Positions 10,157-35,844 are shown, counted from the stretch's first letter. The stretch is DNA of 64,000 nucleotides from Nanobdellota archaeon (GCA_030641715.1 DAOWGX010000018.1:35752-99751), one strand, 5' to 3'. A program made the numbers and translations. Notes: a model not told the origin generated them from the sequence alone.

Positions 10157-12328
10157 CTATTGATTCTCTGCTAGACCTTTTCGATCCCTAATCTGCTTAA
10201 TAACCTTCGCCTGAAACTGATTAGGCAATCTCTTAAAAGTCTGACTAACCAACGACGAAACACCACGGCCTTCCGTCGCACTTCGTAAATCGTTAGTCCA
10301 TCCAATCATTTCCTGAACCGGAAGCTCGGCTCGAATTGTAGCTCCGGATTCATCCTGTCCGACATCAACTAAAGTTCCCCTTTTCGTCGAGACTAACGAA
10401 GTCACGGCAGCCATAAATTCTATAGGCACCTCAATCTGATGGACTTGAACAGGCTCGAAAATAGCCGGAGTTGCTTTCGCGAATGCTCCTTTAATTGCTT
10501 CTCGGACTGCAGGATAAACTTGTGCTGGTCCACGGTGAATCGCATCTTCATGCAATTTCATATCGACGACTGAAATCTTCATTTTGTGGCATGGTTCTCG
10601 AGCTAGAGGTCCAGCGTCGATAACTTGTTCGAAAGAATCTAAAAGTAGTTCGATAATCTCTCCGATTTGAACGATTCCTTTTGTTCTGTCTAAAAAGACA
10701 CAGCTTTTATACACATCCCTATACTGTTGAGCTTCATCTCGAGAGATTCCTAATCCAACTAGAGTTTCATCTAATGCTTTGTCTTTCTTTTTAATTCTCC
10801 CAGAAGGTAATTTTCCTTCAGCGATAGCTTCGACGATTGAATCTTCTAAAGGTTCAACGGTAATAAAAAAATCGTTGTGTTTGTTAGGGGAACGTCCAAT
10901 AGCAACATCACTTACTTTTACAACGGATTCTCTGAAGACAACAATCGGAGGTCCCATTTCAACCTCAAGACCTTTTTCTGTTTTAATTCTGTTTTCGATA
11001 ATTTCTAAATGCAACTCTCCCATTCCGGACATCAAAGACTCCCCAGTTTCTTCGTTAATTTCAATTCTTAAAGAGGGATCCTCTTTTCCAACCCGTCTTA
11101 AGACTTCGATCAGCTTCGGCAAATCTGCGGTTTTTTTTGCACTTATAGATTTTGTGACAACTGGTTCAAATAAGTGACTGATTGCTTCGAATGGTTCAAT
11201 AGGGTTCTTTGAAACGGTTTCACCGACGACGACATTTCTTAAGCCTACAATTCCAACGATATTTCCTGCAACGACTTCTTCAATTTGGAATCTTTGCGCA
11301 CCTTTGTAGATTGAAACTTGTTGAACCCGGACGGTTGTTCCGGCAATGTTCATGTATAACTCGTCTCCTTGCTTAATTGTTCCACTAAACAAACGACCAC
11401 AAGCGACTTCTCCTGCATGGGGATCAATAACAATTTTAATCGGGACAAATGCAACTTCACCGTCGATATTACATGCCATTAAATCTTTAGCAGCATCACT
11501 CTCCAAATCACCGTGCCAGATTTTAGGAATCCTATACTTCTGAGCTGTTACAGGGTCAGGATGATTGTTGATAACCATGTCTAAAACAACCTCATGGATA
11601 GGTGCTTTTTTTGCTAATTCTTTATAGGCATCACCACCAGCCTCGGAAGCATCAATAACTTCCTTAAAAGAAATATTCTTTTTCTTCATATAAGGAATGC
11701 TCAAAGCCCAATTATGAAAAGCCGAACCAAATGCAACAGAACCATCAGCGACGCTAACCTGCCATTTCTGCTTGTATTCTTCTTCAGCAATTTTAGCGAT
11801 TAACCCGTTGACATCGTTAATAATTTTAACAAATCTTTGTTGCATTTCTTCCGGCGTTAGCTTAACTTCTCTAATTAAACGGTCAACTTTATTAATAAAA
11901 AGAATCGGCTTAACTCTTTCTTTTAGTGCTTGTCGAAGAACGGTTTCAGTTTGGGGCATGATACCTTCGGAGGCACAGCATAAAACAATGGCGCCATCTA
12001 CAGCTCTCATGGCTCTTGTAACGTCGCCACCAAAATCAACATGTCCTGGTGTATCAATTAAATTGATTAAATAATCCTTACCCTCGACATTATGAATCAT
12101 AGACACCGACGCTGAATCAATTGTAATACCTCTTTCTGTTTCGTCTTCGTGAAAATCTAAAGTCCTTGCCTTCCCTGCCAAAGCCTGACTCATCATCCCC
12201 GCACCTGCTAGGAGATTATCGGAGAAGGTTGTTTTTCCGTGATCGATGTGCGCCGCGATTGCAATGTTACGAATCTGTTTAGGATTTTTTTGCAATTCTT
12301 TAATCTGTGTTGTTATATCTGCTGCCAT
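10157..12328 (-). CDS. fusA: translation elongation factor EF-2
   Basis: AHIDHGKTT, DTPGHVDF, NKVDR; five-domain EF-2 including the region carrying the diphthamide histidine. Confidence 0.97.
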   Translation of the reverse strand: MAADITTQIKELQKNPKQIRNIAIAAHIDHGKTTFSDNLLAGAGMMSQALAGKARTLDFHEDETERGITIDSASVSMIHNVEGKDYLINLIDTPGHVDFGGDVTRAMRAVDGAIVLCCASEGIMPQTETVLRQALKERVKPILFINKVDRLIREVKLTPEEMQQRFVKIINDVNGLIAKIAEEEYKQKWQVSVADGSVAFGSAFHNWALSIPYMKKKNISFKEVIDASEAGGDAYKELAKKAPIHEVVLDMVINNHPDPVTAQKYRIPKIWHGDLESDAAKDLMACNIDGEVAFVPIKIVIDPHAGEVACGRLFSGTIKQGDELYMNIAGTTVRVQQVSIYKGAQRFQIEEVVAGNIVGIVGLRNVVVGETVSKNPIEPFEAISHLFEPVVTKSISAKKTADLPKLIEVLRRVGKEDPSLRIEINEETGESLMSGMGELHLEIIENRIKTEKGLEVEMGPPIVVFRESVVKVSDVAIGRSPNKHNDFFITVEPLEDSIVEAIAEGKLPSGRIKKKDKALDETLVGLGISRDEAQQYRDVYKSCVFLDRTKGIVQIGEIIELLLDSFEQVIDAGPLAREPCHKMKISVVDMKLHEDAIHRGPAQVYPAVREAIKGAFAKATPAIFEPVQVHQIEVPIEFMAAVTSLVSTKRGTLVDVGQDESGATIRAELPVQEMIGWTNDLRSATEGRGVSSLVSQTFKRLPNQFQAKVIKQIRDRKGLAENQ

Positions 12329-12432
12329 ATATTACAGGTTGAAATTTGGTTTATAAAAGTTTGCATATCTGAAGATAAATTTCTCGACGCTGTTACTAAT
12401 CTATTTTGATTTCTACCAGATAGTGTCTCGGC

Positions 12433-12864
12433 TTATTTTTCAGCATCGTTCTTTTTAGAAACAGCATAATCTTCTAAAATCTTTTCTTTTACGCTTTCTA
12501 ACTCCCCCTTACCAAGATAACATGCCCCAATTATAAAAGAACACATAACACCAACCAGGCCTAAACCAAACCCAAGACGAGAGTGATAATTCCTTTTTTC
12601 ATAATCATGTATCTCAGTCCTAGATTTTTCATCAGAGACAATAGTATTATATTCCGTAGCCATTTCCAAGTCAATTGGATTATATTCTCCTCTCCCCATC
12701 TTGTTATAATCTGGAAATGCACGATGAATTTCTCCACTCAACTCGTGTACTTTTCGGACCAAGGGGGAAGGATTCGGAATCGAAGAAGAACTATATGCTC
12801 CATAACCAAAACTTAAAGTACCTACCAGCATCAACGATGCCCCCAAGTGTTTAAATTTCCCCAT
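12433..12864 (-). CDS. inserted two-TM membrane protein whose C-terminus derives from the S7 3' end
   Basis: 143-aa ORF between S7 and EF-2; ends ..DYAVSKKNDAEK, compared with the S7 end ..SYAVSKRNDAEKQADAAR. Confidence 0.6.
   Translation of the reverse strand: MGKFKHLGASLMLVGTLSFGYGAYSSSSIPNPSPLVRKVHELSGEIHRAFPDYNKMGRGEYNPIDLEMATEYNTIVSDEKSRTEIHDYEKRNYHSRLGFGLGLVGVMCSFIIGACYLGKGELESVKEKILEDYAVSKKNDAEK
12436..12469 (-). repeat. copy of rps7 3' end (29/34 nt identical to 12962-12995)
   Basis: hand alignment: tttttcagcatcgttctttttagaaacagcataa vs tttttcggcatcattcctttttgaaacagcgtaa. Confidence 0.75.
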
Positions 12865-12940
12865 AGTAAATTAAAATAATTTAACCTTATAAGAATAATT
12901 ATACTGGGGTGTATATTAAAATCTTCGACAAGAATTAAAA

Positions 12941-13534
12941 TTACCGAGCCGCGTCAGCCTGTTTTTCGGCATCATTCCTTTTTGAAACAGCGTAACTCTC
13001 TGAACTCCCTTCCGCTGCAGACATCAACTCTTTAGATAATGCTTCGACGATTGTCGCTTTTTTGTTGAATGCTTTATCGTAAGATCCATTAATTATATAC
13101 CGAAGAACTAAATTCAATCTTCTCCTTGGAGAGACATCAACAGTCTGAGGATATCTCGCACCACCATATTCAATCGTGGTCACGGTATCTCTTGGAGCTC
13201 CATTCTCAATGGCTTTGACCAAAATTTTCAAAGGATTCTCCCCTGTTTTCTTTTCGATTATTTTAAGTGCATCAATTACAATTTTAGTGCATTGTGCCTG
13301 CTTCCCTGTAATTCGTCCGGTAATGATTTTATGCTTCTTCCCTCGCGAACCAGGGACTTGTAGTAGATTTATCAGTCTCTCGATGACATTAACTTTTTCT
13401 CTCGCCGGGTCCCATTTAATTCTTCCGTGTGATTTCAACATTAACTTGGGATTTAGATTGATAACTTTTTTTAAACCGGGGTCTTCTACTCGAACTTCGG
13501 AGATGTCGAACAGACCGAAAACTTTCATTTCCAT
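12941..13534 (-). CDS. rps7: 30S ribosomal protein S7 (uS7)
   Basis: archaeal S7 sequence and operon position. Confidence 0.95.
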   Translation of the reverse strand: MEMKVFGLFDISEVRVEDPGLKKVINLNPKLMLKSHGRIKWDPAREKVNVIERLINLLQVPGSRGKKHKIITGRITGKQAQCTKIVIDALKIIEKKTGENPLKILVKAIENGAPRDTVTTIEYGGARYPQTVDVSPRRRLNLVLRYIINGSYDKAFNKKATIVEALSKELMSAAEGSSESYAVSKRNDAEKQADAAR

Positions 13535-13537
13535 TTT

Positions 13538-13744
13538 TTAAGATGAACCCTCCTTGTCTGATTCCATTTTAATTTTCTTTATCGCCTCGAAAATATCTCC
13601 CCCACCATAATCCTGGATTAACTGAGCATTTCTAGCTTTCACAACTGGATCATGAGGATTTACAGACTCATAATTAAATTCGTCATTATCATCACTTCCA
13701 ACATTATTCCTTCTATAACTCTCACGAATAGATCTCTCCATCAT
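13538..13744 (-). CDS. acidic 68-aa ORF wedged between S12 and S7
   Basis: ATGA overlap with the S12 stop; ends 3 nt before the S7 ATG; no recognisable family. Confidence 0.45.
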   Translation of the reverse strand: MMERSIRESYRRNNVGSDDNDEFNYESVNPHDPVVKARNAQLIQDYGGGDIFEAIKKIKMESDKEGSS

Positions 13745-14163
13745 CTCCGCCCCTTCTCAATCTTTCCAGACCAAAGTCTAGCCAAAGGCTGATCATTTAC
13801 TTTAATAACCTGAAACCTCACACCTGACAAATCTCCCTTCGTCCGTCCTTGCTTTCCGCCGATTCTTTCAATTACAACTTCATCATGCTCGTCGACAAAT
13901 TTCTGCGCTAAGTTTCCGGGAATAAAGGCTGTAACTTCTTTGCCGTTTTTTATTAATTGAACTCTGCAGCATTTCCTCATGGCTGAGTTAGGTTGCTTAG
14001 CTTCTTTCTGGATTTTTTTTATAACAATACCCTTAGCTTGTGCTGCCCGTCCAATCGGATCGAACTTCAAACTAATTCCAAGCCGCTTTTTTTTAGCAGG
14101 CAGTTTATTATCTCTAAACTTCTTTCTCGCGTTCTTTAATTTTAATGCATTCATTAATCCCAT
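13741..14163 (-). CDS. rps12: 30S ribosomal protein S12 (uS12)
   Basis: KQPNSAMRKCCRVQLIKNGKEVTAFIPG signature. Confidence 0.95.
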   Translation of the reverse strand: MGLMNALKLKNARKKFRDNKLPAKKKRLGISLKFDPIGRAAQAKGIVIKKIQKEAKQPNSAMRKCCRVQLIKNGKEVTAFIPGNLAQKFVDEHDEVVIERIGGKQGRTKGDLSGVRFQVIKVNDQPLARLWSGKIEKGRR

Positions 14164-35643: not shown

Positions 35644-35844
35644 TTCGATAGATATATAAATTGAGAGTGCTTTTTTAATTTATGGCGATAAGAAAGGAAG
35701 GTCCTGGGAAATGAATTTTGATAATACCGGTATAGCCTTATAAGGTTCCAAAATCTATATGAATCAAAATTACTTATTTGGTCTATGAATTTAAATAAAG
35801 ATGGTCCAGCTATTTGAGAAACCTATAGTAGGTTTTTGAAAATG

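Follow-up and report, generated by a model that had tools for sequence, protein, structure and literature searches.

We analysed a 64,000-nucleotide stretch of DNA (the window, positions 35752 to 99751 of contig C4) from a 731-kb, 30-contig archaeal genome (G000), a metagenome-assembled bin that is 84% complete. The subject of this report is a small gene, ORF143, that lies between the genes for ribosomal protein uS7 (S7) and elongation factor 2 (EF-2) and whose 3' end resembles the 3' end of the S7 gene. The contig is 104 kb long and its synteny is normal on both sides of the locus. On the minus strand, the gene order is S12, ORF68, S7, ORF143, EF-2, EF-1alpha, with identities taken from Pfam matches; ORF stands for open reading frame. 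The features of the locus, in window coordinates and in the direction of transcription, are the following:

13741-14163, minus strand: S12 gene (Pfam)
13538-13744, minus strand: ORF68, of 68 amino acids, without a Pfam match
12941-13534, minus strand: intact uS7 gene (PF00177, E=1.2e-35), whose native tail ends in ...SESYAVSKRNDAEKQADAAR before the stop
12954-13012 (core 12959-13003), minus strand: T1, native 3' coding segment of S7, present in duplicate (repeat search, codon alignment, identity profile)
12918-12943, minus strand: first 26 nt of the hairpin element HP, TAATTTTAATTCTTGTCGAAGATTTT, counted from the S7 TAA, the remainder of the element being missing here (direct comparison)
12885-12904, minus strand: P1, GTATAATTATTCTTATAAGG, the promoter of the ORF143 cassette (genome-wide consensus position)
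12433-12864, minus strand: ORF143, an orphan membrane protein of 143 amino acids without a Pfam match
12428-12486 (core 12427-12471), minus strand: T2, a diverged partial copy of the S7 3' end (repeat search, alignment, blastn)
12403-12419, minus strand: probable last 17 nt of HP, CTGGTAGAAATCAAAAT, 7-11 nt past T2, resembling the HP 3' arm GCTAAGAATCAAAAT
12329-12395, minus strand: EF-2 upstream block, beginning TAACAGCGTCG, with the EF-2 promoter GCAAACTTTTATAAACC at 12348-12364, collinear with relatives that lack a cassette
10157-12328, minus strand: EF-2 gene (Pfam GTP_EFTU, EFG_III, EFG_IV, EFG_C)

The insert between S7 and EF-2 is ~526 nt long, and ORF143 is the only gene it encodes. A preliminary description of the window had reported that the last 11 residues of ORF143 (YAVSKKNDAEK) repeat the S7 tail, and that positions 12436-12469 match positions 12962-12995 at 29 of 34 nucleotides in the same orientation and frame. 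Both statements were borne out, the first by a codon-for-codon, in-frame alignment (...EDYAVSKKNDAEK, stop, AE in ORF143 versus ...ESYAVSKRNDAEKQAD in S7), and the second by a recount. In a repeat search, the match extended without gaps to 59 nt at 75% identity (12428-12486 versus 12954-13012). T2 encodes (D)YAVSKKNDAEK and a stop, followed by 6 further nucleotides. Counted from the ORF143 stop, identity was 28/33 between −33 and 0, 34/45 between −36 and +9, and 17/42 between −78 and −36, with background levels farther out. The certain length of the repeat is thus 45 nt, and it may reach as far as ~60-80 nt.

It had also been proposed that the distal copy supplies both the 3' coding end and the stop of the insert. 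Comparison of the two sequences agrees with this as far as the last ~13 codons and the site of the stop are concerned, and the 3' end of ORF143 accordingly appears to be a chimera in which these derive from T2 (45-59 nt). The stop itself is not that of S7: it is a TAA that pairs with an S7 Gln codon (CAG in this genome, CAA in the majority of relatives). Relative to the S7 stop, T2 breaks off 12 nt early, and the native GCGGCTCGGTAA comes after T1, not T2.

The likeness of T1 and T2 is statistically robust. Their local alignment score was 22, while the maximum reached with shuffled sequences was 12, and blastn returned E=9e-8 within the locus set. Pairs with at least 29 of 34 identities at a spacing of 100-3000 nt occurred at four loci in the window and at none in three Markov-shuffled windows. 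A tblastn search with ORF143 across its own genome matched only ORF143 itself and the S7 tail. In all ~45 relatives of the genus and order, S7 ends in ...[YF]A[VI]SK[KR]N[DE]xEKQADAAR before the stop; the S7 studied here is 74-96% identical to that of other genomes of the genus, and the tail is kept in all of these. Since the tail is native to S7 in ~45 relatives, and since ORF143 has neither a homologue nor a paralogue, copying proceeded from S7 to ORF143. In the 33-nt core, T1 and T2 differ at five positions, four of them synonymous and one a Lys/Arg exchange. Three relatives (G013, G068, and G071) have exactly the T2 peptide YAVSKKNDAEK in their S7 tails, and T2 differs from the S7 gene of G013 at three positions of the 11-codon core, all of them synonymous. 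The synonymous bias and the shared peptide fit descent from two different S7 alleles, though the numbers are too small for proof.

ORF143 looks like a real, species-specific, independently transcribed gene for a small membrane protein. Its codon-usage score was 0.313, and 0.266 for the part not related to S7; fragments of long genes scored 0.294 +/- 0.096 on average, and wrong frames ~-0.9. A TATA element, CTTATAAG, is located at −31 to −24 from the ATG, where the genome-wide consensus AAnnTTTAnAAA peaks (~−29), and the ORF143 mRNA is therefore expected to be leaderless. The preliminary description had called the product a protein with two transmembrane (TM) segments. Hydropathy (Kyte-Doolittle) revealed a strong TM segment only at ~93-122; the hydrophobic segment at the N-terminus (residues 7-25) is weak and signal-like, so that one TM helix is clear and a second is not. 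A single-sequence AlphaFold2 (AF2) model was all-helical, with a mean pLDDT of 81, and contained one helix running from residue 79 to 142 through the TM segment and the S7-derived tail. The predicted layout is thus a signal-like N-terminal helix, a helical region of ~65 amino acids, the TM segment at 93-122, and a 21-amino-acid tail, of which the last 11-13 residues are S7-derived. ORF143 is not itself an S7-domain protein: only residues 121-143 align to the S7 tail, and there is no match to PF00177 or any other Pfam family.

No homologue of ORF143 was found in six-frame searches of ~60 relatives, in a word-index search of 5.8e9 proteins, in a full HMMER search against 1.84e9 representatives, or in scans of metagenome and genome contigs, and a contig lookup with the exact sequence gave no match. 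No paralogue was detected in its own genome by tblastn. The sole match in the homologue searches, P0002, was rejected as a spurious repeat protein.

The sequences on the two sides of the insert were compared with the corresponding region of relatives. The left part has the layout of an allele that carries a cassette: T1, the native last 12 nt of S7, TAA, the HP 5' arm, P1, and the body of the ORF. The right part, from inside the S7 tail onwards, has the layout of the cassette-less G008 locus: T2, the HP 3' arm, the TAACAGCGTCG block, and the EF-2 promoter. The EF-2 upstream block is 80% identical to that of G008 over 56 nt (E=4e-10), and the EF-2 promoter is kept across the genus at a position that fits the genome consensus. 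The arrangement S7(T)-insert-T-EF2 suggested initially omits the HP ends that bracket the insert together with T2, and the T2 copy lacks the native S7 end.

HP is a palindromic hairpin of ~111 nt whose first triplet is, in many relatives, the TAA of S7. Its fold was predicted by RNAalifold to contain 38 pairs, 18 of them with compensatory changes. No Rfam family matched it, and a match to mir-315 was spurious. A covariance model (R1) revealed HP as a dispersed repeat present in 0-39 copies per genome of the genus, and 17 of 20 inspected copies start with a TAA directly after the upstream coding region. HP copies are located at the following positions in relatives:

L006:2092-2202: HP copy
L008:2089-2199: HP copy
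L014:1390-1500: HP copy
L015:2092-2204: HP copy
L016:1389-1500: HP copy

HP is multi-copy, non-coding, bounded by terminal inverted repeats, and variable in copy number between genomes, as is usual for miniature inverted-repeat transposable elements (MITEs); neither a target-site duplication nor a transposase was identified for it. A terminator-like or MITE-like nature is likely. The genome studied here contains one intact copy (C26:17783-17893) and one interrupted copy (C28:17769-17884). The 3' arm of the C28 copy is broken by a 39-nt insertion, CGCCGTCCCGGCACACCCCAAATACATAGGGGCGAAAAC, which is single-copy in the genome; a repeat family was thereby ruled out as its source. One intact copy compares with up to 39 in relatives, and decay of HP is thus the rule in the lineage.

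At the S7 locus, the 26-nt HP start matches the HP 5' arms that follow the S7 stop in seven relatives (G005, G008, G019, G003, G015, G022, and G033), and its 14-mer TAATTTTAATTCTT is unique in the genome. A degenerate form of the HP 3' motif occurs 43 times in 1.46 Mb, which corresponds to p ~0.002 for a 60-nt stretch. The covariance model gave no significant match to the split HP at this locus. Because that model alone cannot detect halves of the element, the identification of a split HP is based on direct comparison and on the rarity of the motif.

The P1 motif (GTATAATwATTyTTATAAAG) precedes seven other, unrelated cassettes of this locus in relatives, in spacers L008, L016, L063, L066, L070, L076, and L079, and sometimes precedes the second cassette of an array. 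There were 35 matches to it in 16 of 49 genomes of the genus and one match to the reversed control; a looser form has five matches in the genome studied here. P1 lies 10-14 nt past the S7 stop in relatives without HP and 36 nt past it here, behind the HP remnant. It may be a portable cassette promoter. No earlier description of P1 or of the HP family was found in the literature.

In the preliminary description, the insert was considered an interruption of a conserved S12-S7-EF2 order. A lineage-specific gene does separate S7 from EF-2, but the order is not rigid, the spacer being hypervariable in the genus. When the S7-EF2 region of about 40 genomes of the same genus was examined, it proved to be a cassette hotspot in which the same conserved flanks enclose differing cassettes: spacers ranged from 2 nt to ~1.3 kb (2-1279 nt) and contained at least 10 unrelated small ORFs, and ORF143 was present in none of them. 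In G064, the spacer is only 2 nt long (S7 TAA-AC-ATG EF-2), and the two genes are presumably co-transcribed; in some other genomes, S7 and EF-2 are no longer adjacent. The commonest cassette, found in 6-7 genomes, encodes a two-TM family (A2) of 84-98 amino acids. Membership of ORF143 in A2 was rejected, as hhalign revealed no relation.

A copy of the S7 tail was found in none of the other ~40 genomes with cassettes at the hotspot. Copies of the opposite flank were found in two of them. In G009 (L007:1381-1457), a 23-nt copy of the EF-2 start is located 54 nt upstream of the real start. In G012 (spacer L010), a relic of the EF-2 start, AAAAGGCAACGAAAGAAAAA, closely follows the S7 stop; behind it comes a 930-nt insert with a 267-amino-acid ORF on the opposite strand. 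Judging by these sequences, duplication of a flank end is a recurrent, non-obligatory by-product of insertions at the S7-EF2 hotspot, and the S7-tail copy itself, most likely a scar, is a one-off that cassette insertion does not require.

A second insertion is present in the same operon. ORF68 (13538-13744, minus strand) is located between S12 and S7 and was not detected by tblastn (E<=1e-3) at any of the ~50 loci of relatives. In several relatives, the S12 stop and the S7 start overlap (TAATG); the start of ORF68 occupies the position of this ancestral overlap (AGATGATGGAGAGAT versus AGATAATGGTAGAGAT). Its coding score of 0.41 is good, and S7 is preceded by a Shine-Dalgarno-like GGAGGG. The ORF68 insertion was possibly accompanied by a short duplication of the S7 start.

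The suggestion that the same logic operates at other loci found support in genome-wide scans. Repeats at pheS/pheT and pyrH, a 641-bp tandem unit, and a further 59-nt pair, which corresponds to a tRNA/Fic island, were seen, and blastn returned 31 local direct-repeat matches. Duplication of flank ends recurred in the blastn scan, in a protein-level scan, and in the scan for pairs with 29 of 34 identities. At least six other loci contain a direct repeat of 30-77 nt, one copy of which is the 3' end of a gene, including the stop, while the other lies 0.3-2.9 kb downstream. Six such repeats have a higher identity than the S7 case:

C4:17400-17476 and C4:20255-20331: 3'-end direct repeat
C14:15656 and C14:16016: 3'-end direct repeat
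C14:33548 and C14:34564: 3'-end direct repeat
C17:1251 and C17:2819: 3'-end direct repeat
C6:891 and C6:1629: 3'-end direct repeat
C12:237 and C12:855: 3'-end direct repeat

In the protein-level scan, the S7 case ranked fifth among such events. A pair at C2:11392-11465 and C2:12668-12741 is of another kind: two adjacent genes on the same strand, for proteins of 151 and 437 amino acids, share a tail of ~25 residues (VPEFGF.VGMLTILSA.V.F.VVRK) that looks like a sorting signal of the PEF/PGF-CTERM type, i.e., a functional domain and not an insertion scar.

We propose, at a probability of about 0.5, that the tail of ORF143 arose when two alleles of the locus underwent one event of illegitimate, one-sided recombination, of the type known as homology-facilitated illegitimate recombination (HFIR). 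The incoming DNA would have been a cassette-bearing allele, with an S7 end, an HP remnant, P1, and a cassette ORF; the resident locus would have been cassette-less, with an S7 end, HP, and the EF-2 promoter. The left side would have recombined by homology, in or upstream of S7, while the right end of the incoming DNA would have been joined illegitimately inside the resident S7 tail. The resident S7 ending would thereby have been pushed downstream, past the cassette, and joined in frame with its truncated ORF. The displaced copy would later have lost its last S7 codons, its stop, and most of HP through small deletions, and the position of the Gln codon in the displaced tail would have become TAA. 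Such deletions in the displaced stop-HP unit are plausible in a lineage from which nearly all HP copies have disappeared. The 3' fragment of the upstream gene is indeed kept downstream of the module and is collinear with the cassette-less allele, as HFIR predicts. A microhomology of 8-9 nt, GTTATGCTG, shared by S7 tails and the 3' end of the G005 cassette is a suggestive but not significant candidate for the left junction of T2. We infer the order of events, the inter-allelic mechanism, and the status of the S7-derived tail as an unselected passenger.

The insertion of ORF143 probably involved no integrase. The only PF00589 match in the genome is the tyrosine recombinase XerA (equivalog score 227.9, cut-off 220), and with the model for integron integrases this protein scored 199.6, below the cut-off of 265, in a genome that is 84% complete.

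Several observations weigh against the inter-allelic recombination proposed. No donor allele, i.e., ORF143 with a different native C-terminus, was found. The displaced copy would need at least one extra deletion of ~95 nt, and a further ~35 nt would have to be lost ahead of the EF-2 block. In S7, sliding identity to G013 and G008 was flat, with no mosaic breakpoint. T2 is not significantly closer to a foreign S7 tail (37/45 identities to that of G013) than to its own T1 (34/45). The 3' HP remnant is short, and was found by eye and by motif frequency, while the covariance model did not see it. Finally, with a genome that is 84% complete, a recombinase could have been missed.

Some simpler schemes can be set aside. 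ORF143 is not a decayed duplicate of S7, as upstream of T its identity to S7 does not exceed background. Tandem duplication of a T1-to-T2 unit is excluded because no repeat of the cassette follows T2; since the native S7 end stands after T1 rather than T2, duplication of a target site by a simple staggered cut is excluded as well. Chance or convergent likeness of two C-termini rich in Lys and Glu, or an assembly artefact, is very improbable. Both tails are charged and AT-rich, and the genome is a metagenome-assembled bin; against this, similarity at the nucleotide level is far above that of shuffled sequences, the peptide occurs nowhere else in the genome, and the 104-kb contig shows normal synteny on both sides of the locus. 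Moreover, exact matches between T1 and T2 all stay below 13 nt and are too short to mislead a k-mer assembler. A different proposal concerns the retention of the tail rather than its origin: selection or gene conversion may have kept it, for example because, as a cytoplasmic helix imitating the uS7 C-terminus, it could make contact with an S7 partner. The synonymous nature of four of the five core differences from the cell's own S7 and of all three from the S7 of G013, the sharp drop in identity outside the core (28/33 to 17/42), and the prediction by AF2 of a tail that continues the TM helix all speak for it. Descent from different S7 alleles explains the synonymous bias equally well, however, and this bias is statistically weak (p ~0.05-0.2 on five sites); the drop in identity may just mark the true boundary of the repeat, an orphan in one genome allows no comparative test, and the most conserved S7 end, QADAAR, was not kept. 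We consider selection on the tail hardly probable.

Two other mechanisms could in principle generate the observed layout. If HP had suffered a double-strand break, a foreign promoter and ORF could have been captured and ~45-60 nt of the S7 tail copied as a templated insertion, in one complex event. Palindromes are known sites of breakage, HP ends are found on both sides of the insert and T2, the distance from T2 to the HP 3' arm is at most ~10 nt and that from the source of T2 to the HP 5' end 12-70 nt, and HP copies have been purged from this genome. The retained HP arms, however, are only loosely complementary and need not derive from one HP, and P1 occupies an equivalent place relative to S7 in relatives without HP, which suggests an ordinary cassette-bearing allele on the proximal side. 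We also know of no templated insertions of ~45-60 nt documented for archaea, and repair at the palindrome seems to us possible but unlikely. The other mechanism, which is improbable, is site-specific (Campbell-type) integration of a small circle bearing an att-like S7 end, by a recombinase acting in trans (XerA or one missing from the assembly), with T1 and T2 as the equivalents of attL and attR. It would account for direct repeats around a single-gene insert and for the 30-85-nt junction duplications at several other loci of the genome, and the mini-circles of PeSL (promoter-early stem-loop) elements offer a precedent for circular cassette intermediates (PMC2839356). Yet the insert has no integrase, XerA is the sole tyrosine recombinase, and the duplicated sequences at different loci are unrelated and thus have no common att core. 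The T2 copy also lacks the native downstream sequence expected of attR, and an S7-tail copy is present in 0 of ~40 other genomes with cassettes here. The locus therefore shows neither feature of integrative elements that target gene 3' ends, namely, a recombinase of their own and native sequence after the distal repeat.

Under inter-allelic recombination, the S7-EF2 junction offers a clean, datable case of how an accessory gene can enter the most conserved operon that a minimal archaeal genome possesses and leave it intact, and of chimeric gene birth, in which a recombination scar from an essential gene became the C-terminus of an orphan protein. Seen alongside the junction duplications at other loci of this genome and in its relatives, the locus suggests that DPANN genomes gain cassettes mainly by illegitimate recombination between alleles, with no dedicated mobile-element enzyme. 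HP and P1 could be markers or substrates of cassette gain and are the more novel side of the findings.

Several known systems resemble the locus in part. Integron cassettes, including those of archaeal integrons (PMC9668308), share with it single-gene cassettes and imperfect palindromes of ~60-140 nt. In contrast to integrons, there is no IntI here, only XerA, no attI or array structure is present, the cassettes have promoters of their own, and HP follows ordinary core genes throughout the genome. Instead of a promoterless ORF with attC in an array driven by Pc, ORF143 has its own P1 at the consensus distance.

There is also a likeness to the PeSL cassettes of T4-type phages (PMC2839356, PMC4122927): both combine small orphan ORFs in hyperplastic regions, a near-identical strong promoter (here P1, common to eight hotspot cassettes), and a repeated stem-loop after stop codons (here HP, which is dispersed). 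Unlike PeSL, the present case is on an archaeal chromosome, neither a fixed composite of P1 and HP nor a recombinant junction inside either was demonstrated, and recombination at P1 or HP alone leaves the S7-tail copy unexplained. One might speculate that this Pacearchaeota-like DPANN genus runs a recombinase-free, PeSL-like shuffling, in which P1 and HP move small orphan genes for membrane or secreted proteins into junctions between essential genes, leaving 20-100-nt duplications of flank ends as a signature; we consider this rather unlikely. If it were true, the S7 case would be a scar recruited as coding sequence, a chimeric gene with a cytoplasmic tail that copies a ribosomal C-terminus.

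As in the minimal mobile elements (MMEs) of Neisseria, whole-gene cassettes differ between two conserved genes, here S7 and EF-2, and are presumably exchanged via flanking homology. MMEs, as defined in PMC3082526 with reference to Saunders & Snyder 2002 and to Snyder et al. 2007, leave no flank duplications, while pieces of the flanking genes are duplicated in the present genome and in G009 and G012. Illegitimate joints are therefore indicated.

HFIR has been proposed for the displaced orphan 3' regions of Rhs, contact-dependent inhibition (CDI), and type VI secretion system (T6SS) effector-immunity arrays (PMC5361080; PMC3240628). Our case differs from these in that the conserved gene is ribosomal and not a polymorphic toxin, the host is a DPANN archaeon, and the mechanism is inferred; in addition, the fragment is only ~45-59 nt long and is fused in frame to the incoming ORF instead of standing separately. 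The common points are a module beside a conserved gene, one homologous and one illegitimate joint, and a resident 3' end pushed downstream as a fragment in which part of the conserved gene is preserved. The S7-tail scar is thus another case of a known kind of event, a recombination scar and a chimeric orphan gene in a hotspot.

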